From Bacteroidota bacterium (GTDB lineage: Bacteria; Bacteroidota; Bacteroidia; Bacteroidales; Prolixibacteraceae): a DNA stretch of 64,000 nt. Every line of letters starts with the position of its first letter. Positions within the stretch are counted from its first letter, which is position 1. Where the stretch lies: positions 5,194-69,193 of the forward strand of contig JAHEYU010000022.1 of assembly GCA_023251435.1 (NCBI GenBank), given 5' to 3'. Shown here in pieces: positions 6,531 to 57,600 of this stretch. Under the pieces are notes generated by a model. It worked only from the letters and a program-made list of their open reading frames with translations, did not search any database and had not been told where the DNA came from. The position numbers and the translations under genes were made by a program.

Positions 6531-8468
6531 ATGAACCGAATATTTAAGATATTTTTCAGCATCTTCATCCTGATTTTGTTGATCGCCCAAACCGGGAATA
6601 GTCAGGTGCGACTGCCGAAACTGGTGAGCGATGGAATGGTCCTTCAGCGCGAAACTCCGGTGAAGATCTGGGGTTGGGCGAGTGCAGGAGAAAATGTAAA
6701 ACTCAATTTCAACAACCAATCGTTCGAAACACTTACCCCGGCTGACGGCAAATGGATGATTACCCTTCCGGCACAAAAGGCGGGCGGACCATTTGAAATG
6801 AAAATCACTGGCAGCAATCAAATTATCCTGAAGGACGTTCTCTTTGGCGATGTTTGGCTGTGTTCAGGCCAATCGAACATGGAAACGACGATGAGCCGGG
6901 TTTCTCCTCTTTACGGAAAGGACATTGAAACCTGCATGAATCCCAACATCAGGCTATTTCAGGTTCCGGTACGCTGGAATTATACCAAACCGCAAGAAGA
7001 CATTCAAGGTGGAAAATGGGAAGCAGCCAATCCGCAAACAATTTTAAAATATACAGCAGTGGGCTATTTCTTTGCCCGCGACCTTTACGAAAAGTATAAA
7101 ATTCCGGTCGGAATTATCCAGTGTGCCGCCGGTGGCTCATCTGCCGAAAGCTGGATCAGTGAAGAGTCGCTGAAAGCTTTCCCCGATCAGTTTAAAATTG
7201 CCAAACAGCTTTCAGATACAACTTACCTGAAAAACCTGCTCAATTCGGAGCGAACTGCACAGTCGAAATGGTTCGATGAGCTGGGGAAAAGTGATCTGGG
7301 AAGAAAGGGAATGCCCTGGCTCATTTCGCAACTTGATGATTCTGACTGGCCAACTTTGCAAATACCATCTTCGTTTAGGGAAGCAGGTATGGATTTTAAA
7401 AGTGGTGCCGTTTGGTTTCGTAAGGAAATAGAACTTCCTGAAAGTTGTTCAGGAAAACAAGCTCTTCTTGAACTTGGAACGATCGTTGACAGCGATTCAG
7501 TTTTTATAAACGGGAAATTTGTTGGGACAACAGGCTACCAATACCCACCACGCCGCTATGCTGTAGCTTCCGGTATTTTAAAATCAGGCAAAAACAACAT
7601 TACTGTGCGGGTAATCAGCCAATCGGGTAATGGTGCTTTTATCAAAGAAAAACCTTACCAACTGACCGTTGAAGGACAAACCTTCGACCTGAAAGGAACC
7701 TGGAAATACAACATCGGAGCGAAATGTGGACCCAGTCCAATTGCAACCTTTTTCCCCGGAAAACCGCTTGGATTGTACAATGCAATGCTTTCTCCTATTG
7801 TGAACTACACCTTGAAGGGGATGGTTTGGTACCAGGGCGAATCGAATGCTGAACGCGCTCACGAATACAAAACTGTTCTCGCTACCTTGATTGGCGAATG
7901 GCGAACACTCTGGGGACAAGGCGATCTACCGTTCCTTTTTGTTCAGCTTCCCGACTTTATGGAACCAAAGAATGAACCTTCTGAAGGCGGTTGGGCAACG
8001 CTTCGTAATCAGCAGTTGAAAACACTTTCAGTACCCAACACAGCCATGGCAGTTACCCTCGGATTAGGCGAAAAGAACGACATTCATCCACTTCGTAAAA
8101 AAGAAGTTGGACAACGACTTGCCCTTGCTGCCGAAAAGATTGCCTATGGCGATAAAAAAGTGGTAGCCTCGGGACCAATGTATCAGTCAATGAAGATGAA
8201 AGGCAACAAAATCGAACTGACTTTTTCTGATTGCGGAAGTGGACTGACCACCAATGATGGCAAGGAACTGAAACATTTTGCCATTTCCGGAGCCGACAAA
8301 AAGTTTGTATGGGCTAGAGCAGAAATCATAGGAAATAAAATAATTGTTTGGAACGAAGCTGTTCCTAAACCGGTTTCGGTGCGGTATGCCTGGGCTGATA
8401 ATCCTGCCGGTGCCAATCTGTATAACAAAGAAGGATTGCCCGCTTCGCCATTTAGTACCGAAAAGTAA
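6531..8468 (+). CDS. SASA-domain (sialate O-acetylesterase-like, CE6-type) carbohydrate esterase, probable acetylxylan esterase
   Basis: 645 aa with a signal peptide. GDVWLCSGQSNME is an SGNH-type nucleophile block. An inserted beta-sandwich is present (AVWFRKEIELP...FINGKFVG). Second half contains WYQGESN. Confidence 0.85.
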   Translation: MNRIFKIFFSIFILILLIAQTGNSQVRLPKLVSDGMVLQRETPVKIWGWASAGENVKLNFNNQSFETLTPADGKWMITLPAQKAGGPFEMKITGSNQIILKDVLFGDVWLCSGQSNMETTMSRVSPLYGKDIETCMNPNIRLFQVPVRWNYTKPQEDIQGGKWEAANPQTILKYTAVGYFFARDLYEKYKIPVGIIQCAAGGSSAESWISEESLKAFPDQFKIAKQLSDTTYLKNLLNSERTAQSKWFDELGKSDLGRKGMPWLISQLDDSDWPTLQIPSSFREAGMDFKSGAVWFRKEIELPESCSGKQALLELGTIVDSDSVFINGKFVGTTGYQYPPRRYAVASGILKSGKNNITVRVISQSGNGAFIKEKPYQLTVEGQTFDLKGTWKYNIGAKCGPSPIATFFPGKPLGLYNAMLSPIVNYTLKGMVWYQGESNAERAHEYKTVLATLIGEWRTLWGQGDLPFLFVQLPDFMEPKNEPSEGGWATLRNQQLKTLSVPNTAMAVTLGLGEKNDIHPLRKKEVGQRLALAAEKIAYGDKKVVASGPMYQSMKMKGNKIELTFSDCGSGLTTNDGKELKHFAISGADKKFVWARAEIIGNKIIVWNEAVPKPVSVRYAWADNPAGANLYNKEGLPASPFSTEK

Positions 8469-8485
8469 TCATTGAAATAAAAACG

Positions 8486-10129
8486 ATGGATCATTTTAAA
8501 AAGATATTCTGGTTAGCGCTTTCATTGTTGATAGTGTTGTTTCCTGCTCAGATGCAGGCACAAACAGCCATTCAAACCAATGTTCCTGCGCTGAAAGTAG
8601 TGTACGCCAATGATTTTAATTTCGGTTATATTTTATCGTATCCTCACATCGGATTTTCTACAGATCCTTATGTTTCTGGACAGGGATCGGTTGTTGCACC
8701 ACAGGGCGGCAACCTTGTAAAATTTCATGCGAACAGTATGACACCCGGCAACAACATGAAATCGATTTATACGATCGATATTTCAGCAAGCGCAAAAGCT
8801 TTTCAGGCGGCAACAACTCAGGCAGCTAAAGATTCCATTGAAACCCATCCGGTATTGAAATTTAACGGGAACCTGATTGCACAACTCAATTGGGCCAAAC
8901 GACAGGGTTTTACATTCAGAGGTCACACCCTGGTTTGGCACAGTCAGAGTCCTGCTGAATTTTTTCGTTCAGGATATACAGCAACAGGAACTCGATTGAC
9001 CAAAGAAGTGATGACTCTGCGGATGGAAAACTACATCAAAGAAGTAATCAGGCTATTGCATCAAAACTGGCCTGGTTTATTATCAGCAATGGATGTCGTA
9101 AATGAGGCGATTAGCGATAGTAACGGCGCTTTCAGAACTTCAGGAAATGAATGGTACACCACTTTTGGCGACCAGACTTATATATTAAAAGCTTTTGAGT
9201 TGGCTCGGAAATACACCATTCAGTACGGCGAAACTCAAATGAAACTGTACTATAACGATTACAATACAAGTAGCGCTTCGAAAGCTGATGGAATTGTGAA
9301 ATTGTGCAAACCCATTTTCGACGCCGGTTATCTGGACGGAATCGGGATGCAGGAACACAATTCAATGACCTCTCCAACAGCATCGAGCTGGATCAGTGCT
9401 TACAATAAATATTATCCGATCTGTAGCGAAATGGCGGTGACCGAACTCGACGTTACCACCAGCAGCGGCACCAATACGCCTTCAGCAGCAATTCTGACGA
9501 CACAGGCCAACCAATATGCGATGTTGTTCAAGTGCTTTGTTGAACGAAGCTATAAATCAGGAAGGGGAAAAATTATTAGTGTTACCAAAGATGGGTTGAA
9601 CGACCAATACACTTTTGTTACCAACCAGTCATCATCGTTGTGGGATGTTAACAATCAGTGTAAACCAGCATTTTATGCGGTGGCAAATGTTGGAATTTAT
9701 TACAACAGACTCGATTCGTTGATTGCCGCTACGCAAAAACTAAATTCGGGCAACTATTCAACCCAAATGTGGCAAAATATCACCACCGCTTTGAATTCGG
9801 CAAAAAGCTCATTATCTCAAAACTATTCGGCATCATCATCGGCAGTAACCGGATTGAGCAACGCCATTGCCAATCTAAAAAAAGCCCTGATTACGTATCC
9901 TACGCAGGTTAATGAACTCCGCGACAAAATATCGGTACATACTTTTTGCGGAACCATCCATATAAACAATTTATCAAAGGGGGCGCAGATAGCTGTTTAC
10001 GGGTTGAATGGTGCTTTACTGCATTCAGTAAGAGCATCGTCATCCAACATTTCGGTTCCTTATACTGTACCATGTATTGTGCGTGCTGTAGACGGTAAAG
10101 ATATGTTTACAAGAAAAATCATACAGTAA
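8486..10129 (+). CDS. GH10 endo-1,4-beta-xylanase with helical linker and T9SS-like tail
   Basis: 547 aa with GH10 blocks FRGHTLVWHSQSP, VVNEA (acid/base), YYNDYN, GIGMQEH and VTELDV (nucleophile). C-terminal beta-rich tail ...AQIAVYGLNGALLHSV...FTRKIIQ. Confidence 0.9.
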   Translation: MDHFKKIFWLALSLLIVLFPAQMQAQTAIQTNVPALKVVYANDFNFGYILSYPHIGFSTDPYVSGQGSVVAPQGGNLVKFHANSMTPGNNMKSIYTIDISASAKAFQAATTQAAKDSIETHPVLKFNGNLIAQLNWAKRQGFTFRGHTLVWHSQSPAEFFRSGYTATGTRLTKEVMTLRMENYIKEVIRLLHQNWPGLLSAMDVVNEAISDSNGAFRTSGNEWYTTFGDQTYILKAFELARKYTIQYGETQMKLYYNDYNTSSASKADGIVKLCKPIFDAGYLDGIGMQEHNSMTSPTASSWISAYNKYYPICSEMAVTELDVTTSSGTNTPSAAILTTQANQYAMLFKCFVERSYKSGRGKIISVTKDGLNDQYTFVTNQSSSLWDVNNQCKPAFYAVANVGIYYNRLDSLIAATQKLNSGNYSTQMWQNITTALNSAKSSLSQNYSASSSAVTGLSNAIANLKKALITYPTQVNELRDKISVHTFCGTIHINNLSKGAQIAVYGLNGALLHSVRASSSNISVPYTVPCIVRAVDGKDMFTRKIIQ

Positions 10130-10165
10130 AAAAAATACCAATCGGCAACTTAAAACATTTATAAA

Positions 10166-12931
10166 ATGCAAAATACAAATAAATCAGACCAACGTTTCAC
10201 TTCCAAAAGGCTGAAAATATTTGCTCTTATGAGTTGCATCTGTCTCTTGGCTAACACACCTGCATCAGCACAAAATACCGACAGGACCTTGAGACAACGC
10301 ATTTCCATCAACGAAGGCTGGAGTTTTTTCAAATACGAATCGGCTACAATAGCTGATAAGCTGATTTACGATATTCGACCTGAAATTACCGATTTAACTG
10401 AAAACAAGGTAGCCGATGCCAAACCTACTGAAGCGGTTGAAGTGGAAGCTAAACAGGAAGTGCTAAAACCCTGGATTCTTCCGTCTGCGAATGATTTCAT
10501 CAAAGATCCGGCAAAAAGACATGCTCGTCCCGAAGGAAATCCCGGCGGTGATTTTCCCTTCGTTCAAAGCAATTTCGACGACCGTTTATGGGAAAAAGTA
10601 AACCTGCCGCACGACTGGGCGATCAAAGGCCCTTTTCAGAAAGGTTGGAATTCTGAAGTGGGCGGTGGCATGGGGCGTTTGCCCGTTAACGGAGCGGCCT
10701 GGTACAGGAAAAAACTCGACGTTCCGGCAGCGGATGCAGGCAAATCCATCTTTCTTGATATTGACGGAGCCATGTCGTATACCATCGTTTGGTTGAACGG
10801 CCAACTGGTTGGGGGCTGGCCTTATGGCTACAATTCGTTTCGGTTAGATCTGACTCCGTTCATCAAATTCGGAGGTGAGAATCAATTGGCCATCCGCATC
10901 GACAATCCCAACCATTCTGCCCGTTGGTACCCCGGTGCAGGGCTTTACCGCAATGTTTGGCTGACCAAAACCAACCCGATCCACGTTGGTCAGTGGGGAA
11001 CTTACGTGACCTCAAAAGATATTTCAAAGGAATCTGCCACCATCAATCTGGCAGTTTCCATTGACAACAATACAAAATCAGATGCAACAGTTGAAGTTTC
11101 AACTTCAGTTTATGCGTTGGATGCAAAAGGGAACAAAACATGTAAGGCTGTTGGTCGCTTTTCAAGCCTGAAATCGAAAGTTGTTGCTGACGGAATCGCC
11201 AAAGTTGAAAACTCGGTTATCCTCAAAAACCCCAAACTCTGGGGGCCTCCGCCAACACAGCAACCGAATCTTTATGTAGCCGAAACTACTTTGTCTGAAA
11301 ACGGCAAAATTATCGACACCTACGAAACCCGGTTTGGAATTAGGTCAGTAGAATTTAATCCCGATAAAGGAATAGTTGTCAACGGTGAACACATTAAAAT
11401 ACAAGGGGTCAACCAGCACCACGATCTGGGCGCTTTGGGTTCTGCGTTCAATACGCGCGCTGCTGAACGCCAACTAGAGATTTTACGCGAGATGGGTTGC
11501 AACGCCATTCGTATGGCGCACAATCCGCCAGCGCCGGAGTTGCTCGAATTAACCGACCGCATGGGTTTTCTGGTAATCGACGAGATTTTTGATTCGTGGG
11601 AACGAAAAAAGACTCCGCATGATTTCCACCTGATTTTTCCTGATTGGTCAGAAGCCGATACACGCGCATTTATTCGTCGCGACAGGAATTGCCCTTCAGT
11701 AATTATGTGGAGTTTTGGAAATGAAGTGGGAGAACAATATACCGACAAAGATGGTGCTGCCGTAGCAAAACGGTTATCCGATTTTGTAAAGGAAGAAGAC
11801 CCAACGCGGCCAACTACTCTTGCCATGAATTTTGCAAAACCGGACATGCCTTTACCCCAGATTCCCGATGTAATTGGTCTGAATTATCAGGGCGAAGGGA
11901 TTCGCACTGCTCCGGAATTTGAAGGAACCGATCGCATTCGGACTTCTCCGCAATACTATTCTTTCCATGCAAAATTTCCCAACAAAGTAATTCTCAGCGC
12001 TGAAACCGCTTCAGCATTCAGTAGCCGTGGCATTTACCTGTTCCCCGTTTCGAAAGAGAACAGTGCACCGGTACGCGATGGCCGTGGCGGCGATTCGAAA
12101 ATTTGTCAGGTTAGTTCGTACGAACTCCATGCAGTTGACTTTGGCTCATCCGCCGATAAAGTTTTTGGGTCACTCGACCGGCATCCTTTTGTGGCGGGCG
12201 AATTCGTCTGGAACGGATTTGATTACATTGGTGAACCAACTCCTTATTATGAGGCGCGGAGCTCGTATTCAGGCATGATCGATCTGGCAGGTTTCAAAAA
12301 AGACCGGTTTTATCTTTATCAATCCCGCTGGCGCTCTGATCTGCCCATGGCTCACATTCTTCCACACTGGAACTGGGCGGAACGCGTTGGAGAAGTCACT
12401 CCGGTACATGTATTTACTTCGGGCGACGAAGCAGAATTATTCCTGAATGGAAAATCATTAGGGAAAAAGAAAAAAGGAGATTACGAATACCGTTTGCGTT
12501 GGGACGATGTGAAATATGAACCGGGCGAATTGAAGGTAGTCGCGTATAAAAATGGGCAGAAGTGGGCAGAAGAAATGGTAAAAACCACCGGAGAAGCATC
12601 GCAACTTCAGGCCACAGCCGACCGTAGCCAAATTGCTGCCGACGGAAAAGATTTGACCTTCATTACCGTGAAAATAACTGATAAGAATGGATTGATGGTA
12701 CCACGATCAAATAACCGGATTGAATTCAGTATTGAAGGTCCGGGCGAAATTGTGGCCACCGATAACGGCGATTCATATAATCTGGAATCCTTTGCTTCAA
12801 ACCAACGTGAGGCTTTTAACGGATTGGCGCTGGTGATTGTAAGGGCGAAATCTGGAGAAACGGGAACCATAACCGTGACAGCAAAATCAAACGGTTTGGC
12901 TGAAACCAAGATGACAATCAAAAGCAAATAG
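10166..12931 (+). CDS. GH2 family glycosidase (beta-galactosidase/beta-glucuronidase-like)
   Basis: 921 aa with WYRKKLDVP, LNGQLVGGWPYGYNSFRLDLTP, GVNQHHDLGALG, NAIRMAHNPP and MWSFGNEVGE (acid/base NE). C-terminal Ig-like domains. Confidence 0.9.
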   Translation: MQNTNKSDQRFTSKRLKIFALMSCICLLANTPASAQNTDRTLRQRISINEGWSFFKYESATIADKLIYDIRPEITDLTENKVADAKPTEAVEVEAKQEVLKPWILPSANDFIKDPAKRHARPEGNPGGDFPFVQSNFDDRLWEKVNLPHDWAIKGPFQKGWNSEVGGGMGRLPVNGAAWYRKKLDVPAADAGKSIFLDIDGAMSYTIVWLNGQLVGGWPYGYNSFRLDLTPFIKFGGENQLAIRIDNPNHSARWYPGAGLYRNVWLTKTNPIHVGQWGTYVTSKDISKESATINLAVSIDNNTKSDATVEVSTSVYALDAKGNKTCKAVGRFSSLKSKVVADGIAKVENSVILKNPKLWGPPPTQQPNLYVAETTLSENGKIIDTYETRFGIRSVEFNPDKGIVVNGEHIKIQGVNQHHDLGALGSAFNTRAAERQLEILREMGCNAIRMAHNPPAPELLELTDRMGFLVIDEIFDSWERKKTPHDFHLIFPDWSEADTRAFIRRDRNCPSVIMWSFGNEVGEQYTDKDGAAVAKRLSDFVKEEDPTRPTTLAMNFAKPDMPLPQIPDVIGLNYQGEGIRTAPEFEGTDRIRTSPQYYSFHAKFPNKVILSAETASAFSSRGIYLFPVSKENSAPVRDGRGGDSKICQVSSYELHAVDFGSSADKVFGSLDRHPFVAGEFVWNGFDYIGEPTPYYEARSSYSGMIDLAGFKKDRFYLYQSRWRSDLPMAHILPHWNWAERVGEVTPVHVFTSGDEAELFLNGKSLGKKKKGDYEYRLRWDDVKYEPGELKVVAYKNGQKWAEEMVKTTGEASQLQATADRSQIAADGKDLTFITVKITDKNGLMVPRSNNRIEFSIEGPGEIVATDNGDSYNLESFASNQREAFNGLALVIVRAKSGETGTITVTAKSNGLAETKMTIKSK

Positions 12932-33421: not shown

Positions 33422-33649
33422 ATGATTGATTACAGAAAAATAATCACCATTGAAGCAGGAAAAAGAGGAGGAAAACCTTGTATTCGTGGAATGAGGATTA
33501 CTGTTTATGATATACTTTCATGGTTGGCTTCAGGAATGTCAAACGCAGAAATAATTGACGAATATCCAGAGTTAAATGCTGACGATATTTTTGCCACTTT
33601 GAGTTATGCCGCTGACCGTGAACGGAGCATCTATCAAATAGCTGTATGA
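33422..33649 (+). CDS. DUF433 protein (putative antitoxin)
   Basis: 75 aa: GKPCIRGMRITVYDILSWLASGMSNAEIIDEYPELNADDIFATLSYA. The stop overlaps the next start in ATGA (33646-33649). Confidence 0.8.
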   Translation: MIDYRKIITIEAGKRGGKPCIRGMRITVYDILSWLASGMSNAEIIDEYPELNADDIFATLSYAADRERSIYQIAV

Positions 33650-33993
33650 AACTGCTTTTTGACCAAAATATCTCATTCCGCATTTTGAAAAAACTTTCTG
33701 AAGCTTATTCAGATTCAAGTCATGTAAAAACTGAAGGATTGATGAATGCCTCAGATATGGAAATATGGGAATACGCTAAAAATCAACATTTCATCATTGT
33801 CACTCAGGATTCAGACTTTAATGATCTGTATCTGATGAAAGGATTTCCGCCAAAGATCTTATGGTTTCAAACTGGCAATCTTCGAACTGATGAATTTGTC
33901 CAAATCCTTGAAAACAGGAGTAATGACATTTTTGAATTCAACAACAATGGCGAATTGGGATGCTTTGAAATTTCACGTCTCAAATCAATTTAG
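33646..33993 (+). CDS. DUF5615 PIN-like protein (putative toxin)
   Basis: 115 aa: MKLLFDQNISFRILKKL...ASDMEIWEYAKNQHFIIVTQDSDFNDL...PPKILWFQTGN matches the DUF5615 pattern. Confidence 0.75.
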   Translation: MKLLFDQNISFRILKKLSEAYSDSSHVKTEGLMNASDMEIWEYAKNQHFIIVTQDSDFNDLYLMKGFPPKILWFQTGNLRTDEFVQILENRSNDIFEFNNNGELGCFEISRLKSI

Positions 33994-34082: not shown

Positions 34083-34122
34083 CAGCCGGAGTTTTCTCAT
34101 TGCAGAACTCCGGCTGTTTTTT
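34083..34122 (+). terminator. Rho-independent terminator after the TA pair
   Basis: Stem CAGCCGGAGTT (34083-34093) / AACTCCGGCTG (34106-34116), 12-nt loop, TTTTTT at 34117-34122. Confidence 0.8.
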
Positions 34123-34146: not shown

Positions 34147-35232
34147 TTAGAAGGGCACATCAATGCTATCCGTTTGTTTATCCTCATTACGTAAATAGAA
34201 CGGGAGATGAATTCCCAACTCTTCCAGTTCTTTTCTTTTTTTCATGTGGAAACCCAATAAATCGTATTCGTGTATTTTTTCTTTCCAATCGTCTTCTTTG
34301 GCTATTTGGTCTTCCTCATCGCCAGTATAAATTGTGTATTTGGCTAACAATTCATAATAATGTTTACACATAGCCTTGAAAAAAGAATAGACTTCCGAGA
34401 ATACTTCTCCTGCAAACAAATATTTGTCAAACTCGGAAAAAGCATAATCCTCACCATCTTTCACGAGGAAATACTTCATTTCTAAAGTTCCAATGTGATA
34501 AATTTCTTCGTATGCAACTACCCAATCAATGAGCTTCTGCTCAGTCCAATTCTCATTGTACTCACGATTGGCTTGACTAATTTTGTCTAAGTTTGGAGAA
34601 ACAACTTCTGCAATTTCATTTAATTTATAGTAAAGAAAAAGAAAAGGGGACCACTTCAGCGGTCGTAGTAGTAATCTAAACCCACCCAACCGCTCATATA
34701 ATCCGGCATATCTCCCTAGCCAGGACTCAATTTCCTCGAAACTAAGTTTGCGGGGTGGTTGGGTGACTATTTCGTTGTAGGCACCCTGCGCAGCATTAAC
34801 ACGAATCCAGTAGGATGCTGGTTTGGGAAAGTTTGCAGTTTCGTCACGATCAATATCGATGGAAGATTTCTCACCTAAATCAGGAACCTCGATGTCGGAT
34901 TTGAACTGCGAACAGCTGTAAATATCGGTAATTTCGTCGCCATTCAGCTCAAAAATCAGGTTCAGATAATTTTTGGAGTGGTTGCCCACCAGGCGATAAC
35001 CCTTTTTGCCACAATTGGGGCAATCAGCGCCTGCACAAACTCCTTCGTACATCCACAATTCCTTATCGCCCGCCTTGCGGAATACTTCAAAAATGCGTTC
35101 TATCTTATCGAGAAAAACTTCTTTGGTGGCTTCCTGGTAAGTGTATTTGTCTTTCAAATAATACCGAAGCAGGTCGATATCCATGTTGCAAAAAAAGCAG
35201 AGAATGGATTGTAGGTAGGAGGTTGTGGGCAT
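34147..35232 (-). CDS. Orphan 361-aa protein, no recognisable domain (cassette gene 4)
   Basis: Long ORF starting 5 nt after the stop of the FRG gene. The only motif I can point to is a Cys cluster, EGVCAGADCPNCGKKG. The C-terminal tail is acidic. Confidence 0.65.
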   Translation of the reverse strand: MPTTSYLQSILCFFCNMDIDLLRYYLKDKYTYQEATKEVFLDKIERIFEVFRKAGDKELWMYEGVCAGADCPNCGKKGYRLVGNHSKNYLNLIFELNGDEITDIYSCSQFKSDIEVPDLGEKSSIDIDRDETANFPKPASYWIRVNAAQGAYNEIVTQPPRKLSFEEIESWLGRYAGLYERLGGFRLLLRPLKWSPFLFLYYKLNEIAEVVSPNLDKISQANREYNENWTEQKLIDWVVAYEEIYHIGTLEMKYFLVKDGEDYAFSEFDKYLFAGEVFSEVYSFFKAMCKHYYELLAKYTIYTGDEEDQIAKEDDWKEKIHEYDLLGFHMKKRKELEELGIHLPFYLRNEDKQTDSIDVPF

Positions 35233-35237
35233 GTCCT

Positions 35238-36041
35238 TTATGATTTTAGAAACTTGGCTATATTGCTATCGCTCAGTTTTGAGTAATGAAGTTTTAAAAT
35301 CGCTGCATAATAATCAAGCTCATTTTTGCCAGCAAATAAATCATATACCATTTCTCCCATTTTTATAATTTCTTTGAGGATGTCTAATTTTAATTCTTTG
35401 GGAATGTGAACTTTTATAAGACTGTCAGTATGTGCCTGATCCTTTGACAAACAACTAAATAGGCTACGTGTATCACGATATAAGAATTTACTTCCTTGTA
35501 AAATCTTTCTGATTTCACTTAATCTAAACTCATTATTCTCTTTCTTTCCTAGTTTGGGGGCTGGAATAAAGAATGATTCATCATACCCGTTACTGTAAGG
35601 ATTGCTAAATATTGAAAGATCTTTTTGTTTAGCGGTAGGATTTTCATAAATGATTAATGCCCCTTCTTTATTAAGGTATTGTATGTCAGCCACTGCAAAT
35701 AAAAGTGCAATGATTTTATCGTGCGAAAAGTCCAGTAGCCTTGTTGGAAGTCCACTGTGTTGGGAGATCATCGAAATAATCCAACTGTGGTCATAACCTT
35801 CAACTTTAGGAATGAGAAACTCCAGGTTATTTTCTTCGATTTTCTGCTCGAACTTTTTAATAAGCATGTTCTCAATCGGAAGTAGAGAGTCAATGTCCAT
35901 AATACCCCTATTTCTTACTAGAGTCGGTGTAATATCCCATGAGAAATCTGCCTGACCACGATAGTAATTATCTCCATTACTATGATATTTTCCAACGAGT
36001 TTTAGAAATTCTTCAATTGATTTTGGTCTTTTTATTTCCAT
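35238..36041 (-). CDS. FRG-domain protein (cassette gene 3)
   Basis: 267 aa. NYYRGQADFSWDITPTLVR and MISQHSGLPTRLLDFSHDKIIALLFAV match the FRG-domain signature ((F/Y)RGQ ... QH.GlPTrLLDw). Confidence 0.8.
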   Translation of the reverse strand: MEIKRPKSIEEFLKLVGKYHSNGDNYYRGQADFSWDITPTLVRNRGIMDIDSLLPIENMLIKKFEQKIEENNLEFLIPKVEGYDHSWIISMISQHSGLPTRLLDFSHDKIIALLFAVADIQYLNKEGALIIYENPTAKQKDLSIFSNPYSNGYDESFFIPAPKLGKKENNEFRLSEIRKILQGSKFLYRDTRSLFSCLSKDQAHTDSLIKVHIPKELKLDILKEIIKMGEMVYDLFAGKNELDYYAAILKLHYSKLSDSNIAKFLKS

Positions 36042-36090
36042 TTCATTTTAGGTTAATATTGCTTTAGAATCCTTAAAATTCCATTTTCGA

Positions 36091-36819
36091 TCAAATAAAA
36101 AGTATATCAATAATTTCTTCAAAAAGCAGATGAACCTCATTTTTACTTTTTAAACTATGGAGTTCCTTACCTGAATATCTAAGAACTTCCTTCCATCCAC
36201 TTTTCTTTAATTTTCGGGTTCGAATATCATCATTCCTTTTTTGCTCAGGGCTTGAATGATAATCATATCCATCGCATTCCAGAGCTACCTTTTTAGATTC
36301 TATTATTTTCCCATCAAATGTTTTCCTATTTAAAATTACTGCAATATCTAATCGATATTCAATACCATCAATTGCAACAGAATATTGAGGTCGAACCTCA
36401 AATTCGCGAAGAACAAGCTCATCAATTAAGGGCGAATTAGATTTTGATTCTATGGTGTTAATTGGGATACCCTCACATCTAGAATCTTTTACCTTGAAGC
36501 CAATGTTTTTAAGAAACATAAGTTCTGCTTTCCGATAATTGTATTTTTTAACTCTCTCCTTAAGTTTTATATTTTCAAATAGAGAAATATCAGGGTCACC
36601 AAACATGATCTCATCTTCAATAAACTCTAATTCATAGTACCTGTTAAACCAATCGCCATTTTCTCTATGCTTTTGAAAATACCGGTAAAGCTGTAAAAGC
36701 ATCAATTTCTCAATTTCCGATTCGCAAATAGATAGAACTTCATCGATTTGTAAATTGAATTCCTTTACAATACTATAAGTAATCTCATTTTTGAGACTTT
36801 CAACTTTAGGGTCGCTCAT
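36091..36819 (-). CDS. DUF559 / Vsr-like PD-(D/E)xK nuclease-fold protein (cassette gene 2)
   Basis: 242 aa. An ESEIEKLMLLQL helix, then ...QYSVAIDGIEYRLDIAVIL...KKVALECDGYDYHSSPEQKRNDDIRTRKLKKSGWKEVLRYSGKEL. This follows the pattern D...E.DG..H....D..R...L...GW.V.R. A ~90-aa insert follows the first helix. Confidence 0.65.
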   Translation of the reverse strand: MSDPKVESLKNEITYSIVKEFNLQIDEVLSICESEIEKLMLLQLYRYFQKHRENGDWFNRYYELEFIEDEIMFGDPDISLFENIKLKERVKKYNYRKAELMFLKNIGFKVKDSRCEGIPINTIESKSNSPLIDELVLREFEVRPQYSVAIDGIEYRLDIAVILNRKTFDGKIIESKKVALECDGYDYHSSPEQKRNDDIRTRKLKKSGWKEVLRYSGKELHSLKSKNEVHLLFEEIIDILFI

Positions 36820-36840
36820 GAGTATGAGTTTTAATGAAAA

Positions 36841-37047
36841 TTAGTTAGAAGGAGAAAGTTCAAGGTCTTCTTCGTTTATCTCTTGCCTATGAGATCCATT
36901 ATCTTGCCATTCACATGTCCATTTGTCCCTTGTTGTTTTATAAGGCAAACCTCCTCTAACAGTTCGGCCAACTATGGTCATGACTGGAGACGTAGTCCCA
37001 ATTCTAATAACTCTATCTCGTTCTTTAAATTTTTCGGTTTTATCCAT
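36841..37047 (-). CDS. DUF2158 (YodC-like) small protein (cassette gene 1)
   Basis: 68 aa from the ATG at 37047: MDKTEKFKERDRVIRIGTTSPVMTIVGRTV...KWTCEWQDNGSHRQEINEEDLEL. The track's longer version (to 37110) adds 21 residues with no support. Confidence 0.6.
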   Translation of the reverse strand: MDKTEKFKERDRVIRIGTTSPVMTIVGRTVRGGLPYKTTRDKWTCEWQDNGSHRQEINEEDLELSPSN

Positions 37048-37118
37048 GATTAGAAATTTAAAAGATGTGGTACATAAATTTTGAAAATGAATAAGTGATC
37101 TTTCCCTCAAATTTAACC

Positions 37119-37126
37119 CATAAAAC
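37119..37126 (-). promoter_or_regulatory. Candidate Bacteroidetes -7 box (TAAATTTG) for the four-gene cassette
   Basis: The reverse complement of CAAATTTA at 37119-37126 matches TAnnTTTG, 72 nt upstream of the ATG at 37047. Motif match only. Confidence 0.25.
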
Positions 37127-37290
37127 CATCAATAACAACACAAAATGTGGAACCGTGAAAAGTTTTTCACATAATATAGCTTTAAAATGTTTTTATACTG
37201 ACGAGGTGACTTATTATACCGATTGCACATTCATAATAGTCCAATTGCGACTTCGTCTTATTGTACTATATTCATGTAGCATCGGCATTA

Positions 37291-37308
37291 ATCCCGATTA
37301 ATCGGGAT
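37291..37308. promoter_or_regulatory. Perfect 18-bp palindrome ATCCCGATTAATCGGGAT
   Basis: All nine base pairs checked position by position. It lies ~245 nt upstream of cassette gene 1 in a 410-nt non-coding stretch. Confidence 0.5.
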
Positions 37309-37453
37309 AATTTATATTTTCTCTTTGGACTGAAATATAAATACAATTGGTATTAATCGACAGAACTGCTAATAGTATCAATCAGGAACATCGAACGAGA
37401 GTCACCCCGTCAGTTGCAACTGCAAATACCGGTTCATTTACCCAAATTGACGT

Positions 37454-37496
37454 AAAAAAAATGCCGTTTGATTTATAGCAAATCAGGCGGCATTTT
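37454..37496 (-). terminator. Rho-independent terminator of the permease gene
   Basis: On the minus strand: AAAATGCCGCCTGATTT / loop / AAATCAAACGGCATTTT with two G-U pairs, followed by a T-run (A54-A61 on the plus strand). Confidence 0.75.
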
Positions 37497-37522
37497 ATTA
37501 TTGTGCAATCTTGGAATAGTTA

Positions 37523-38932
37523 TTACTCCAATTCATCATCCTCTTTCGCATATTTTCGTTTCAGCCAGAAATAAACCGGTATTCCTGACAGGATAAGAAT
37601 CAGACCGATAACTGCTTCGCGTGGGCGGGTTGCAATAGTATTGACGAACAGTCCGATACAAAAAAGAATAAAAATTGCCGGAACATACGGGTAGCCCCAC
37701 ACTTTGTAAGGCCGGTGCGCATCGGGCATTTTGCGTCGCAAAATAAATACCCCGAGCGTGGTAGCGCCGTAAAAGATAAAAACGGCAAAAATCACCATGT
37801 CGGTCAACTGATCGAAGGTACCCGACAGCACCAGCACCGAAGCCCATAATCCCTGCCACAAAAGCGAGTTGGAGGGAACATTAAATTTGTTCAGCTTTTT
37901 GATACCCGAAAAGAAAAGCCCGTTGCGGGCCATCGCATAATATGGACGCGAACCTGTAAGAATACTGGCATTGGTGCATCCCAGTGTGGTCAGCAAAATC
38001 AGCAGTGAAATGAACAAAACCCCTCCGGTTCCCCAGAAACTCCGGACAGCCTCAACCGCAGCAATCTGATTGCCCGCTTCGTGAACCTGAGTCAATTGAG
38101 GAATCGATAAAAGCGACATGTAAGTCACATTCACCAGCAGATAAACAGCGATCACCACAAAAACGCCCATCACAATTCCTTTCGGAATATTTCGGGTAGC
38201 ATCTTTAATCTCTCCACCTATAAAACCAACTGAAACCCATCCCTGATATGCCCAGAAAGCAGCAAGCATTGCCGTAAAAAAGGAAGAGAATGTAACGCTT
38301 CCGCTGATAAGATCGCGGCTATCCATAAAATTGGCCGGTGTGGCAACCGAACTACTTAGTCCAAAAACTATAATCAAAAGAAGGCCTGCACATACCATAA
38401 AAAGTATTGCTCTACTCACCCCTGCCCCACTTTTCAAGCCTGAAATATTGAGAATTGTTAATATCAGGATCAGCAGAATGGCGACAAGCTTAACCCCAAA
38501 ATCCTGAAATGGGAAGAAAACGCCTCCTATCGAAAGATGTTGCAGCGACGAAAAAACTTCGGGAATGGGAATGATGCTGTTCAGCGACTGGGCAAAAACA
38601 TAAGCAAGGGAAGAAATGGTTGCCGTTTGAATAATGGTGAACAGCGACCAGCCATATAAAAAAGCGAAAAAACGGTTGTAAATTTTTTTCAGATAAACAT
38701 ATTCGCCACCGGTATCGGCCAATAATCCGGCCACTTCGGCATTGCTCAAAGCGCCAAAAAGGGTGATAATTCCTCCGACAATCCATGCCGCAAGTATCCA
38801 CGACGATGACTGAAGTTCGGCGGCCATCGGAGCAATTTTCTTATACACTCCTGAACCAATGATATTTGCGACTACAAAAATGATGACATATCCCAATCCG
38901 AGCGTCTTCACCAAATTTCGTTGATTACCCAT
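37523..38932 (-). CDS. APC-superfamily amino acid permease
   Basis: 469 aa, about 12 hydrophobic helices. N-terminal IIGSGVYKK and SNAEVAGLLADTGGEYVYL are typical of amino-acid/polyamine transporters. Confidence 0.9.
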   Translation of the reverse strand: MGNQRNLVKTLGLGYVIIFVVANIIGSGVYKKIAPMAAELQSSSWILAAWIVGGIITLFGALSNAEVAGLLADTGGEYVYLKKIYNRFFAFLYGWSLFTIIQTATISSLAYVFAQSLNSIIPIPEVFSSLQHLSIGGVFFPFQDFGVKLVAILLILILTILNISGLKSGAGVSRAILFMVCAGLLLIIVFGLSSSVATPANFMDSRDLISGSVTFSSFFTAMLAAFWAYQGWVSVGFIGGEIKDATRNIPKGIVMGVFVVIAVYLLVNVTYMSLLSIPQLTQVHEAGNQIAAVEAVRSFWGTGGVLFISLLILLTTLGCTNASILTGSRPYYAMARNGLFFSGIKKLNKFNVPSNSLLWQGLWASVLVLSGTFDQLTDMVIFAVFIFYGATTLGVFILRRKMPDAHRPYKVWGYPYVPAIFILFCIGLFVNTIATRPREAVIGLILILSGIPVYFWLKRKYAKEDDELE

Positions 38933-52445: not shown

Positions 52446-52931
52446 ATGAAAGCAAAAATTTTAATGCTTGTGGTATTGATGAGTATGTCGGCTGTATTAG
52501 TTGCTCAACCCGCCGGAAGGGGCAGTAAGAAACCTTTTATCGAACGAGATAAGGTATTGCTCATGAATGAAGGACAAAGAGGCCCCGGGGAGGGATTGAA
52601 CCTGACAGTCGAGCAAAAAGAAGCCTTCAAGAAAAGTATGCTCGAAGTGCAGAAACAATTACAACCAATCCGCAACGAACTTGGTGAAGCCGAAGCCCGC
52701 CAGAAAACGCTGACTACTGCTGAAAAACCAGACTTGGAAGCCATCAACAAAAACATCGAAAAGATTGGTGCGTTAAAAATTGAAATGGCAAAAATTCAGG
52801 CAAAACACCGCCTCGATATGCGCGCTCAATTAACTGACGAGCAACGGCTTAAATTTGATATACACAAGGGAAAAATGATGCAGAACAGAGGTCCGAAAGG
52901 AATGAAACATCGTATGAGAATGCAAGGATAA
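52446..52931 (+). CDS. Spy/CpxP-like periplasmic LTXXQ-motif protein
   Basis: Start moved to the ATG at 52446 (MKAKILMLVVLMSMSAVLVAQ). Two LTxxQ motifs (LNLTVEQKEAF, QLTDEQRLKF). Helical and basic. Confidence 0.7.
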   Translation: MKAKILMLVVLMSMSAVLVAQPAGRGSKKPFIERDKVLLMNEGQRGPGEGLNLTVEQKEAFKKSMLEVQKQLQPIRNELGEAEARQKTLTTAEKPDLEAINKNIEKIGALKIEMAKIQAKHRLDMRAQLTDEQRLKFDIHKGKMMQNRGPKGMKHRMRMQG

Positions 52932-52962
52932 AATCAATTCTGAAGAATCAGAAAAATATAGG

Positions 52963-52997
52963 CCAGCATCCGGTATTTCGGAATGCTGGTCTTTTTT
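52963..52997 (+). terminator. Rho-independent terminator
   Basis: CCAGCATCCGG / loop / TCGGAATGCTGG (one bulged A) followed by TCTTTTTT. Confidence 0.75.
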
Positions 52998-53232
52998 GTT
53001 TAGTCCTGAATTATAATCAAATGGTTAGCCGAGGTATAATATTAATTCATCACCTGAAACAAAAAGGCATATAATTTTGTATATTTAGTTCACACAATAC
53101 TATATATCAGCAAAAAGAAAAACCAAAATCTTAGCTGAAAAACCATTATTCAATGTATTAACAAGATGGATCATGTTAAGAGATCAGTCAAATTTCAATA
53201 TAAAAAATAATCTGCTGTCTTTCGAAAAGAGA

Positions 53233-54099
53233 ATGACGGTAGGTTTATTTTTTGCATTGATCCTGGCACTTTTCCCTATTTCCGGATTTTCATCTTCACT
53301 AACCTATGGGTTCCCGTTATCATCAGCGAATCTAAACGGTGAATTGACCAAAACAAGGATAAACGAAACCTACGAATCATCATTTCTGAAGCAAGATCCT
53401 GTATTGGGAATAAAAAATCAAACTGCCAATTCGGGATATTTCCCCCTTGCTTATACTGGGAATGGAATTGATCACATGAATATTAATCTTGTTGCGCTAA
53501 ATTCTACAGGTATAAAAATTGGTGATGAAATTGGGGTTTTTGATGGGGATTTATGCGTAGGCGCTGCCATTATCGAAGACAAACACATAAAAGAAAACGG
53601 TATCAGTATTCCTGCGTCGGCTAACGACCGAACAGAATCCAAACCAAACGGATACACTTCCGGACATAAAATAATACTTAAATTACACCGAAAAGACATC
53701 GTTTACCTTCTATATTTTGTAGTAGTTAACAATAGCCGTGATATTTTCGAAAAGAACGAATCGATGTTTGCTTTGATAGATTTTTCTAAATCAACCAGTA
53801 CCAGTAATTTTCTAAACCAAAAAGAAATCAATCTTTATCCAAACCCATTTAACCATTCTATAAAGATTGAAATTTACCTGTCGCAACCACAAAAACTGGT
53901 TTGCGAAATATTTGATGTAAATGGAAATAATATACGCACATTCGCTCCTGACGATGCTGAAGCGAACAATAATTTGGTTGAATTTACCTGGGATGGAAAA
54001 AATAATGACGGGCAAAGGGTGGCTTATGGAATATATTTTTGCCGGACAAACCAAACAATTACCAAAATAATATTCAACTCCTCGCAAAATTCTAATTAA
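53233..54099 (+). CDS. Hypothetical secreted protein with T9SS C-terminal domain
   Basis: Start moved to the ATG at 53233 (MTVGLFFALILALFPISGFSS). Central module ...IKIGDEIGVFDGDLCVGAA...GHKIILKLH. Tail LYPNPFNHSIKIEI...GIYFCRTNQ. Confidence 0.6.
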   Translation: MTVGLFFALILALFPISGFSSSLTYGFPLSSANLNGELTKTRINETYESSFLKQDPVLGIKNQTANSGYFPLAYTGNGIDHMNINLVALNSTGIKIGDEIGVFDGDLCVGAAIIEDKHIKENGISIPASANDRTESKPNGYTSGHKIILKLHRKDIVYLLYFVVVNNSRDIFEKNESMFALIDFSKSTSTSNFLNQKEINLYPNPFNHSIKIEIYLSQPQKLVCEIFDVNGNNIRTFAPDDAEANNNLVEFTWDGKNNDGQRVAYGIYFCRTNQTITKIIFNSSQNSN

Positions 54100-54638
54100 A
54101 CAAAGCAGTTAATTAGAATCTTCACATCAATATAATAAATGGGTAAAATTACTACCTTTTTAATTGCACAAAAGTATCTAACCCTTTGGTTTTGAATTTT
54201 AAATTCTTTAATTTTAATAGCAGTTATAAGTTTTCTGCACCGTTCATCAGAAAAAAATTGGTTTTTATATTTAAAAAAGTTTTATATTTGATTACAAGAC
54301 AAAAGAGTCTCATATCCTTAATAGATATTATTGCGAGTCGTTTTGTCAGTAGGTAATGTGAAGTGACTTTAGTGATTTGTGCTGATTCCCGATAAGATGT
54401 TGAGCGTCTTATAATTTGCCACGAAAATTCCTGCTCTGGCATTAACAAACAGATTTATTCCAGTTTTTATCAAAAAACTAAGATACCGACCCATAGCATA
54501 GAGATATGCCTGTGATTACCGGCTTCATTATACTGGTGTTCTCTCTCTCGAAAAAGGGGAAGTAATATTTGCAAATGAAGTTTTTTTGAGTCATCGTTTG
54601 CTTTTTAACGCTCAATCATAATTTAAAACTTTACGAAT

Positions 54639-57600
54639 ATGAAAAAGTGTATCCTATTATTCATCGGTGCAATCCTTTTCGCAATTGGACTAAATGCTCA
54701 AACCACCATTCCCGGAGGTTATTTTTCAGTTGACAGGACTTTAACTCTGGCTAACAGTCCTTACATAACTTCAAATCAGGATATTGCTGCAGGAGTAACA
54801 GTTACAATCGAGAATGGAGTAGAAATCAGATTTAATCAGGGTTGTTATTTCCAGGTTTTCGGCACCTTAAATGCCACAGGAACTAAATTTACTGCGAACA
54901 ACAGCACTGCAAAAGGTTTTTGGGACGGCATTTATGTGTCTTATGAATGGTATGCCGCAGTTGGTATTGTAACGCTTGATAATTGTACCCTTGAGTATGC
55001 TAGCAACATTTGGGTGAGGAAAGGGCAGCTTACTTTAAAGAAATCCACCATTAATAATTTTTCAGATATGGGTGTCCGACTCTATGCAACGGGAACTTTG
55101 GACATCACTGAAACAACAATAAAAAATTGCAATTACCCCCTCCATTTAAATGGACCTGGGATAATAAAGGCAGGAAGCGGAAATATCTTAACCGGAAATA
55201 CATACAATACTGTTTATCTCCAATTTCAGGAAATTTCCGGTACTTTTTATATGCCCGATTTAGGCATTCCTTACCGATGCGATTATATGAATGTTACCAA
55301 TACAGGCAATCTGCTGATTTCGCCTGGAGCTAAGCTCTGGTTCGTTAATTGCGAATTTACGGTTCAGGGAAAAATTAAAGCTCTTGGAACCAGCGAAAAA
55401 CCAATCGTTTTTGATATGCATCCGGGAGTCTCTTACTACCTTGGAATAAACATAACAGACAGTGCAATTGATTCTGCAAGTATTTTCAAAAACTGTATCT
55501 TTAAAAATGCCCAATACGATTACGATGGCTATTCTGCAATGGCAATTGATGCGGCATCACCAAAATTTGAAAACTGCGAATTTTCAGCAAACGGGCGAAA
55601 CCTGATGGTAACCGGAATAAGCCAACCAACTTTTTCTAATTGTATTTTTAAACCTTCGACCATTCTAAACGGTGAGGCTTATAACATCGCTGTAGATATG
55701 AACACAAATATTGATTTTTCTACCGATTCTATCAAGTTTAACAACAAAGAAATCCGTGCAATTAGAATTCTACCATCTTCAGTAACAGGCAATGCACAAC
55801 TAAAAAAAATATCCTTCAAAAATCTTGAAAATCCAACTTATTGCCTTTATGGTACTACCACTGTTGATGAATCTGCCACTTTGGTAATCGATCCCGGGGT
55901 TGTAATTAAGTGCAGGCAATACAATTCATTAATTGTTGCAAACGGTACATTTACCGGCATTGGTACTGAAACAGAACCCATTATTTTCACCCACCTTGCC
56001 GATGATAATTTTGGTAATCCTCTTGACTCTGAAAACAACGGACAAGCTAATATAAGCAACAGTAATTCAGGTAGGATTGCCATTTATGGTACTGCAACAT
56101 CAAAAATTAAAAACTGGAAGATCTATTATGGCGGCTACGATTCGAATAACTGGGCTGTTTATGTTTCAAAGGGGAATATCGTAGAAAATTGCGAAATAAA
56201 AAATTCATACCGTGGTATCTATTTCTATGATAATGCTCAGGTTCTGAATAACACATTCGTTAATATTAATTATTACCCCGTTGGGAGAAAAGTTAATCAG
56301 GGGAATCCGGTTTTATTGGGTAATACAATCTCAAACGTTGGATATATAGGGATCCTAATTGGCGAATTTGGTACTGATTCTCCGACTCTTAAACAAATGG
56401 ATTTTGTTGGGGTCACCAACGTAGCCTATATTATTGAATCGCAGCTATCTATCGCAGAAGGAAATGTAGTTACCATTGATCCGGGAGTAGTGATTAAATT
56501 TAATCAAAGGTACTACGGATATCTTTCTGTTAGTGGTGCACTGAAAGCAAACGGAGAAGCAAACAATAAAATCATTTTCACCTCTATAAACGATGACTCG
56601 GCAGCAGGCGATACCAATAACAATGGAACTGCCTCGGTAGCCAACAACTATGATTGGCAAGGTTTGGATTTCGCCGGAACTGCAAGTGATACTGAAAATA
56701 TCCTTAAAAACTGCGAAATCAGGTACTGTGGTTATCCCGCTTATTGGGATGGAGCAATACGAATTACTGATTGCCGGGTAGTGATTGATTTAACCAAAGT
56801 GAATTTTAGCTATAGTGGCGCATTGTGCATATTTGGTAATGCAAATCCGGAGATAACCAACAACTTATTTTATAATCTGGGCAATGCACCTATCTATATG
56901 GATATGTTTTCGAATCCCACGTTCTCTGGAAACTTGTTATCCAATGTACCACGGAGAGGCTTACGAATTCGAGGTGGGGCCATTAATGGAACTATCCCGG
57001 TGAGAAACTTTGCCGGTTTTAATAACATTACTTATATAATAGAAGAAACCATGACTGTTACCAACCAGTTAACCATCCCGGCTGGATTAACATTTAAGAC
57101 CGGAAACGGAAATGGAAGATGGAACATACAGGGAAAACTTGATATACAAGGAACTACTGAAAAGCCTGTTATATTTACCACTCAGGAAGATGATTTGTAT
57201 GGCAGTCCGAATGATTTACAAAATAATGGGCAACTCGGATTGAATAATTACGGAAGCTACTTTGTTTTCTACGACCAGGCGGATGATGCCAGCACAATCG
57301 ATTATGCGTTATTCCGGTATTCCTCATCAAATTCAATACAAACGACCAATGCGTCACCCAAAATACTAAACACAACATTCCAAAACTTACCATATCCTGG
57401 GATTGCCCTGGCAGGATCAAGTACTCCATCCATAAACGGTTGTACTTTCAACAACGCAGTATTCCCGTTCACTACCTCATTGGTAACCTATCCGGCAGAA
57501 ACTACCGGCAACACCATTTCGGGCACAACAGGAAGGGCCATCAGGGTTTCCGATGAAACGCTGACGCGGGATGTAACGCTGATTAAACGCGATTTTGCAG

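Follow-up and report, generated by a model that had tools for sequence, protein, structure and literature searches.

A stretch of 64,000 nt from a Bacteroidota bacterium of the family Prolixibacteraceae (assembly GCA_023251435.1, contig JAHEYU010000022.1, positions 5,194 to 69,193; hereafter, the window) contains a compact cassette of four co-directional genes on the minus strand. These genes, numbered 1 to 4 from the 5' end (Table 1), are separated by only 21, 49, and 5 nt; the coordinates and spacings proposed in an initial annotation made by a model without database searches (hereafter, the sequence-only reading) coincide exactly with those in the list of open reading frames (ORFs). An alternative TTG start of gene 1, at 37110, would extend its product to 89 amino acids (aa). 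The cassette encodes a predicted nuclease (gene 2), a protein with an FRG domain (gene 3), and two proteins without an assigned family (genes 1 and 4). It is a real, previously undescribed multi-gene candidate defense operon, whose function and mechanism we infer from its gene content, its surroundings, and its behavior across related genomes.

The unit is bracketed on both sides. At its 5' end lie the terminator of the upstream amino-acid permease gene, which is the 5' limit of the four-gene unit, and a conserved promoter element; at its 3' end, a bidirectional terminator separates the gene 4 stop codon from a convergent DUF5615 gene. Both flanking hairpins had been picked out in the sequence-only reading and both are present. 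Because a conserved promoter region precedes gene 1 and a terminator follows gene 4, the segment 37191-34083 (minus strand) is supported, as judged from these signals, as one operon, that is, one transcription unit of a recurring kind. The cassette is also AT-rich, as claimed before on the basis of two counts of 18 and 29 G+C, which are exact: the G+C content (GC) of 34147-37126 is 0.354 compared to 0.415 for the window, the ninth lowest of 611 sliding windows. The adjoining DUF433/DUF5615 pair that had been noted next to the cassette was readily identified as well; given that this pair is located on the opposite side of the cassette in one related locus (L034), it is not part of the operon but a separate resident of the same island.

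Table 1 Features of the cassette and its surroundings, and two loci with a second genomic context of the gene 2 family
Feature	Position	Strand	Basis or description
Gene 1	36841-37047	minus	ORF, 68 aa from ATG
Gene 2	36091-36819	minus	ORF, 242 aa
Gene 3	35238-36041	minus	ORF, 267 aa
Gene 4	34147-35232	minus	ORF, 361 aa
Conserved non-coding promoter/regulatory element (~92 nt)	37100-37191	minus	Heads the operon
-7 box TAAATTTG	37108-37115	minus	Read from sequence; fits Bacteroidota consensus TAnnTTTG
Bidirectional hairpin terminator	34083-34116	both	13-bp stem, T/A runs on either side
Terminator of upstream amino-acid permease gene	37455-37499	minus	Hairpin followed by T-run
DUF433/DUF5615 (PIN-like) pair	33422-33993	plus	Pfam, E 3e-24 / 2e-33
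umuDC-like gene 2 contexts	L040:1414-2613, L044:5549-7982		ORF neighborhood

Searches against PADLOC-DB 2.0 and NCBIfam yielded a full match for gene 3 only (PDC-S15), partial-domain matches for gene 2, and no match for genes 1 and 4. The cassette is thus not called as any named system, in agreement with the sequence-only reading; the sole flag is that on gene 3 as the single-gene candidate PDC-S15.

Gene 2 consists of an N-terminal domain without family assignment and a C-terminal MTES_1575/DUF559 nuclease domain of the Vsr-like PD-(D/E)xK type. The C-terminal 90 residues match PF18741 (REase_MTES_1575) at 39.0 bits, marginally above the cutoff of 38.2, and DUF559 at 18.9 bits, below its cutoff of 20.6; weaker matches were found to the nuclease regions of PDC-S37 and Hhe (PADLOC) and of ProA (NCBIfam). 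All 87 gene 2 homologues (87/87) carry PF18741. Across 30 homologues, E37 (in SEIEK), D158 (in YRxDIA), E181-C-D183-G184, H188, Q193, R200, and R202 are invariant and K194 nearly so, indicating that the Vsr/DUF559-type catalytic constellation of gene 2 is intact. The nuclease pattern of this type, previously recognized from motifs only, is therefore borne out by both the profile match and the invariant residues. A profile of gene 2 had no match among PDB sequences, and gene 2 had none among PHROGs. One gene 2 homologue (P0094, 43% identity) and one FRG homologue (P0143, 52%) each come from a Logan contig of 6104 nt, which hints at a further co-occurrence of the two families.

Gene 3 is an FRG-domain protein (PF08867, E 1.6e-15, 58.2 bits against a cutoff of 25), and the motifs from which this domain was initially recognized, YRG and QHxGxPTRLLDF, are preserved throughout: Y27-R28-G29 and Q94-H95-x-G97-xxx-R101-xx-D104-F105 are invariant in 32 homologues. 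The protein has matches to a large number of PDC-S15 models in PADLOC (best E 1.2e-23) and to a PHROG family without annotation, phrog_4962 (E 2.5e-15). The description of FRG as a domain without known function, given in the sequence-only reading, is outdated at the level of prediction because the Aravind group has assigned Frg to the ADP-ribosyltransferase (ART) superfamily and predicted that it acts as an NADase or antiviral effector (PMC9503650). In a Foldseek comparison of the AlphaFold2 (AF2) model of gene 3 (mean predicted local distance difference test [pLDDT] score 90.1, predicted template modeling [pTM] score 0.87) with the PDB, three of the four best matches were ARTs, namely, EcPltA, typhoid toxin PltA, and the ART domain of PARP4 (4z9c, 4k6l, and 8swz), all of them weak (E 1.5-6.6, TM ~0.22-0.26). 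These model-based matches are consistent with the published ART claim but are not proof of it.

Gene 4 belongs to no family in Pfam, PADLOC, or NCBIfam, and its only PHROG match was non-significant (E 0.04). Scanning first 24 and later 75 members of the family against Pfam yielded no consistent match; the label SNaCT9, seen in 2 of the 24 (E 7e-4) and absent among the 75, was dropped. Word-indexed search retrieved 31 relatives, and a profile search of 1.84 billion representatives retrieved 999 at E<=1e-3 and 238 at E<=1e-30, so that gene 4 represents a sizeable undescribed family. The 21 matches in genome collections all come from metagenome-assembled genomes of Bacteroidota where the phylum is named (one is labeled only "uncultured bacterium"), with hosts including Prolixibacteraceae, Mariniphaga, Draconibacterium, Cyclobacteriaceae, and Daejeonella; in plasmid, phage, and IMG/VR collections, no match was found, and the gene is, on the evidence of these collections, chromosomal. 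C66, C71, and C107 are invariant in the family, and C74 and an NCG motif are nearly so; three relatives carry N-terminal TPR repeats as fusions. The AF2 model of gene 4 (pLDDT 88.8) comprises three helices and a five-stranded curved sheet (residues 1-112), weakly resembling NTF2/SnoaL-like folds (best Foldseek probability 0.87, E 0.1), followed by an all-helical domain (residues 139-338) that contains helix-helix-beta-hairpin elements at 231-265. Foldseek comparison of this model to the PDB and to BFVD (viral structures) revealed nothing significant, and a profile search against PDB sequences found nothing.

For gene 1, no match was detected in Pfam, PADLOC, NCBIfam, or PHROG. The proposal that it is DUF2158/YodC-like found no support: there was no Pfam match to DUF2158 even at E<=1, and no BLAST alignment to Escherichia coli YodC. 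Gene 1 also shows no similarity to the alternative family of small first ORFs (c7). Its homologues are encoded directly upstream of gene 2 homologues in L034 (91% identity), L060 (91%), and L037 (52%), and a more distant one (49%) lies ~2.4 kb upstream of gene 4 in L027.

The context of the cassette was analyzed across ~35 independent related loci, all from Bacteroidota where the source is named, in which the genes were compared by BLAST clustering. At the level of gene content and order, this comparison shows the window cassette to be one member of a modular, rapidly exchanged operon family of Bacteroidota with a conserved, putative promoter region of ~92 nt, a small first ORF, a swappable middle part, and gene 4 at or near the 3' end, in most cases with an FRG gene immediately in front of it. 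The middle genes often encode nucleases (Vsr-like, DEDDh, or PLD), with or without FRG. Apart from the window, the arrangement of promoter element and gene 4 was found in L001, L003, L009, L011, L015, L028, L031, L034, L038, L057, L059, L060, and L061; L037 contains the element and the first genes, but the contig ends before the position of gene 4.

The promoter element is 87-92% identical at the nucleotide level in L001, L003, L011, L031, L059, and L060, and 85% identical in L034, over a longer match of 169 nt; nhmmer produced weaker matches in L028, L015, L038, L057, L009, L061, and L037. It is always located directly upstream of the first gene of a co-directional array, and this first gene is always small (50-135 aa). 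In Bacteroidota (Bacteroides), promoters have the -7 consensus TAnnTTTG; the matching box TAAATTTG is nearly invariant in an alignment of nine loci, and conservation of the element stops ~10 nt past this box. Given this position of the conservation boundary, we read the element as a promoter with an upstream regulatory region; transcription would start near the box. An imperfect palindrome, GTGAAAA-AC-TTTTCAC, is also contained in the element, and Rfam had no match in the region including it. The possibility that the element is exceptionally conserved, as a special recombination site might be, was considered and dropped because its conservation is about the same as that of flanking housekeeping genes of the same clade. 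Just upstream of the element, genes for REP-associated/IS200-like (Y1) transposases are present in L001 (4625-5296), L037 (1295-1912), and L009 (3264-3701), those of L001 and L037 being RayT-like and outside the unit, and a DDE transposase gene is present in L003; mobile-element genes thus gather at the 5' edge of gene 4 operons. The intergenic region between the permease gene and gene 1 in the window contains ~136 nt (37217-37352) that are extra in comparison to L011 and L031, where the two conserved segments flanking this stretch abut directly; it includes the hairpin ATCCCGATTAATCGGGAT (37291-37308) and may be a small inserted repeat element.

The most recurrent part of the cassette is the pair of FRG and gene 4, which adjoin with a gap of 3-6 nt in seven independent loci, namely, the window, L009, L011, L029, L059, L060, and L061 (FRG identity 48-65%, gene 4 identity 39-83%); in a lookup from the FRG side, both of the close FRG homologues sampled (2/2) had gene 4 directly downstream. 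The full set of four genes in the same order recurs once, in L060, with identities of 91% for gene 1, 82% for gene 2, 57% for FRG, and 83% for gene 4; its chromosomal surroundings there are not those of the window, the genes upstream encoding an epimerase and a short-chain dehydrogenase. FRG in L060 is far more diverged than its neighbors (57% compared to 82-91%), and the spacing between genes 2 and 3 is 6 nt there, as opposed to 49 nt in the window. Where gene 2 homologues are close (>=68% identity; the window, L034, L028, L038, and L060), gene 4 follows downstream within 1 kb. The four genes are accordingly co-conserved only in part: the order is repeated in L060, but the set is not a fixed unit. 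From this distribution, gene 4 is seen to be the constant partner, FRG-gene 4 a recurrent pair, and gene 1-gene 2 a separable module.

A clean exchange within the array is seen in L034, where genes 1 and 2 (87% nucleotide identity) and gene 4 (75%) align with the window but gene 3 does not; the breakpoints coincide with the stop of gene 2 and the start of gene 4, and the place of FRG is taken by a membrane-type ORF of 194 aa and a small gene in decay. Such breakpoints at conserved flanks are as expected for homologous recombination. Judging from these alignments, the slot between genes 2 and 4 is exchangeable; it is occupied by a gene for a 141-aa protein in L028 and by an 83-aa ORF in L038. 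In L034, gene 2 (7884-8606) has a stop codon exactly at the position of the catalytic E37 (CESEI*K), and gene 4 (9425-10510) has an in-frame stop at QAN*AFKK, so that both genes, carrying nonsense codons, are inactivated together. Five contigs show the truncated gene 2 product, and matches are identical among the three loci of this type that were aligned (L034-L036).

The position of gene 2 itself is filled by different nucleases. Directly upstream of FRG-gene 4, L011 encodes an RNase_T/DEDDh protein with WG repeats (PADLOC DEDDh, 1.8e-24), and the protein upstream of FRG in L029 clusters with it (614-627 aa, by homology); L061 encodes a PLD (DrmC-like, 1e-13) and WG repeat protein directly upstream of FRG, and L059 a PLD (DrmC-like, 1.4e-10) and DnaJ protein two genes further upstream. 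Thus, Vsr-like, DEDDh, and PLD nucleases, which represent three unrelated folds, precede FRG-gene 4 in different loci; this substitution of non-homologous nucleases, as deduced from gene order, is the pattern expected of an exchangeable effector. Among 20 partner proteins searched with PADLOC, 4 gave informative matches, 1 gave weak coiled-coil-type matches only, and 15 gave none. Taken together with gene 3 of the window, the models of defense candidates that were matched are PDC-S15, PDC-S31, PDC-S48/DEDDh, and DrmC. Gene 4 also occurs with other, mostly orphan, partners (L001, L003, L015, L057, and L058), with a pair of 627-aa and 170-aa proteins (L025 and L030), with a pair of 242-aa and 62-aa proteins (L018 and L024), and with a PDC-S31-like gene (L031).

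The window shares its chromosomal site, between an amino-acid permease gene and GH92 genes, with L001, L011, L031, and L034. The flanking GH92 and permease genes are 86-96% identical compared to 47-67% for gene 4, and L001, L011, and L031 have interior genes that bear no relation to those of the window; in L031, the permease is 96% identical to that in the window and the interior is entirely different. This gene-by-gene comparison shows the locus to be hypervariable at a fixed chromosomal site. Across loci, toxin-antitoxin pairs, transposases, and PIF1 helicases are among the neighbors. When the flanks of the cassette were searched for att-like direct repeats, nothing beyond short repeats at chance level emerged, and the unit contains no recombinase domain (Pfam) and no repeat family between its genes. 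Both ends of the L059 contig (6.4 kb, metagenomic) lie inside 3'-end fragments of an amino-acid permease gene in the same orientation, with L059:1-63 and L059:6352-6420 matching window positions 37532-37594 and 37664-37732 and the permease fragment located ~60 nt past the stop codon of gene 4; possible explanations are a target-gene end duplicated upon insertion, a tandem or circular form, or an assembly artifact. Elsewhere in the window, the 3-kb stretch with the lowest GC (52900-55900; 0.35), which is unrelated to the cassette, encodes 308-aa and 1503-aa proteins with N-terminal signal-like sequences and repetitive beta-rich regions.

Fast turnover, low GC, a neighborhood of toxin-antitoxin, transposase, and helicase genes, and the exchange of nucleases within an array are hallmarks of defense loci that act against mobile elements. 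Given these features, together with the partners that match defense models and the swapping of nucleases in front of a constant pair of genes, a defense function appears most likely, and we consider the cassette to be an anti-phage or anti-mobile-element defense locus with a probability of about 0.55. The sequence-only reading had proposed one operon in which the nuclease is the effector and the FRG protein and the orphan act as sensor or regulator; the operon-like unit and the pattern of an exchangeable nuclease stand, whereas the sensor and effector roles are conjecture. The defense role, the division of labor, and each biochemical activity are what we infer in the following scheme. Gene 4, with its NTF2-like pocket domain bearing the Cys cluster and its helical domain, would be the constant sensing or controlling subunit. 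The FRG protein would be its obligate enzymatic partner, translationally coupled to it and, per the prediction in the literature, an ART-fold enzyme that consumes NAD or ADP-ribosylates a target. The Vsr-type nuclease encoded by gene 2 could be the exchangeable, DNA-degrading effector, and the gene 1 product a possible adaptor or inhibitor of this nuclease.

Several observations weigh against this reading. Gene 4 is accompanied by neither FRG nor a recognizable nuclease in L001, L003, L057, and L058, stands alone near a PIF1 helicase and housekeeping genes in L006, and is found as tandem or near-tandem paralogs, ~40% identical to the window protein, in L019 (65-2424) and L020 (8001-10869), from which it follows that it does not strictly need FRG or nuclease partners. 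Because neither structure nor sequence searches gave gene 4 a significant relative, its assignment as a sensor is a guess. The ART fold of gene 3 lacks statistical confirmation, the Foldseek search of the PDB having returned nothing significant (best E 1.5), and none of the papers searched reports an experimental test of FRG/PDC-S15, PDC-S15 being a candidate only. Distant gene 2 homologues (<=48% identity) have no gene 4 nearby, and some of these (43-47%) are encoded between genes for an UmuD-like S24 peptidase and an UmuC-like Y-family polymerase, which implies a second, SOS-operon-like context for the family. Finally, most of the contexts come from short metagenome contigs and were derived with our own simple ORF calling.

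The separability of the gene 1-gene 2 module raises the question of whether the cassette is a single system at all. Two modules without a functional link, gene 1-gene 2, perhaps toxin-antitoxin-like, and FRG-gene 4, a two-gene candidate system, could merely share a promoter in a hypervariable island. Such independence would account for the presence of gene 1-gene 2 with gene 4 but without FRG in L034, L028, and L038, for FRG-gene 4 without gene 1-gene 2 in L009, L011, L029, L059, and L061, for the variable gap between genes 2 and 3 (49 compared to 6 nt) next to the constant 3-6 nt between genes 3 and 4, and for the broader gene 2 family with its other known contexts. It would, however, make a coincidence of the nuclease present in the same array in 6 of the 7 FRG-gene 4 loci, in 5 of them directly upstream of FRG, and it sits uneasily with the consistent occurrence of gene 4 downstream of close gene 2 homologues and with the loss of both genes 2 and 4 in L034; on balance, we regard it as the main alternative, but as unlikely. 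Another way to view gene 4 as the constant component is by analogy to BrxR/WYL-type regulators of diverse defense cargo: with a ligand-binding NTF2-like domain and a helical, possibly winged-helix, domain, it might be a transcription regulator acting on the promoter/operator, the cargo being functionally independent. Apart from the promoter element and gene 4, no part of the family is indeed constant, the element contains the palindrome described above, and the helix-helix-beta-hairpin elements at 231-265 of the gene 4 model would suit such a role. Yet Pfam, PDB profile search, and Foldseek reveal no DNA-binding family for gene 4, the palindrome is imperfect in most loci, conservation of the element is uncoupled from that of gene 4 (88% and 47%, respectively, in L001; a weak match and 70% in L057), and the TPR-fused relatives suggest binding of proteins rather than DNA, all of which render this analogy-based scenario improbable.

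The arrays also resemble, in being co-directional strings of small, rapidly exchanged, mostly orphan Bacteroidota genes, a store of cassettes for interbacterial competition, comparable to the Bacteroidales acquired interbacterial defense clusters, in which case the orphans would be toxin or immunity genes and the function would not be anti-phage. Some immunity proteins of polymorphic toxin systems have NTF2-like folds, and nuclease and ART-like domains are common in toxins. We nevertheless find this alternative highly improbable because searches of the unit revealed no secretion-associated domains (Rhs, PAAR, or markers of type VI and type IX secretion systems) and neither a recombinase nor repeated sites between cassettes, the nuclease and FRG proteins are stand-alone and of cytoplasmic type, without delivery domains, and several partners match models of phage-defense candidates. 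Within the defense interpretation that we favor, a more specific possibility, distinctly unlikely as it stands, is that FRG and gene 4 form the central pair of a novel two-component immune module linked to NAD, with Thoeris-like logic but made entirely of undescribed parts. Upon infection, the ART-fold FRG protein would generate an ADP-ribose-derived product or ADP-ribosylate a target, and gene 4 would sense or control this output via its NTF2-like pocket and Cys cluster and license whichever nuclease is encoded upstream (Vsr-like, DEDDh, or PLD). The segment from promoter to gene 4 would then be a "cassette holder" in which effectors are swapped by homologous recombination in Bacteroidota.

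To our knowledge, the defense systems of Bacteroidota are poorly explored experimentally. Should the cassette prove to be a defense locus, the prokaryotic immune repertoire would be extended by a large family of undescribed proteins (~1000 clusters at 50% identity, no Pfam model), and the FRG domain, previously a single-gene candidate only, would gain its first defined multi-gene context. The exchange of three unrelated nuclease folds in front of the same two-gene core amounts to a natural experiment, and the fixed promoter and fixed last gene provide a handle for mining further unknown cargo genes in Bacteroidota.

Compared with known systems, the cassette combines familiar traits in an unfamiliar way. 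Like integron-like or rAID arrays, it combines a common promoter with small genes that are tightly packed in one direction and quickly exchanged, but it encodes no integrase or recombinase and has no repeated attC-like sites between the genes. The nuclease domain of gene 2 is weakly matched by the C-terminal nuclease domains of the helicase-nucleases Hhe, ProA, and PDC-S37; unlike these, gene 2 is small and stand-alone, has a novel N-terminal domain and no helicase, and is paired with a small upstream ORF. With PDC-S15 and Pfam FRG, gene 3 shares the profile matches and the invariant motifs; PDC-S15, however, is a single-gene candidate, whereas here FRG is followed by gene 4 after 3-6 nt within a multi-gene operon. 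A constant core with exchangeable effectors is a design familiar from Lamassu, CBASS, Thoeris, and Avs. The cassette differs from all four in that no SMC, cyclase, TIR, SLOG, or STAND NTPase was detected by PADLOC and in that its constant protein is undescribed; the likeness, which is one of design only, lies in the combination of a constant gene 4 with non-homologous nucleases and an NAD-related enzyme fold, and in the location of the cassette in a hypervariable island near toxin-antitoxin genes and transposases.

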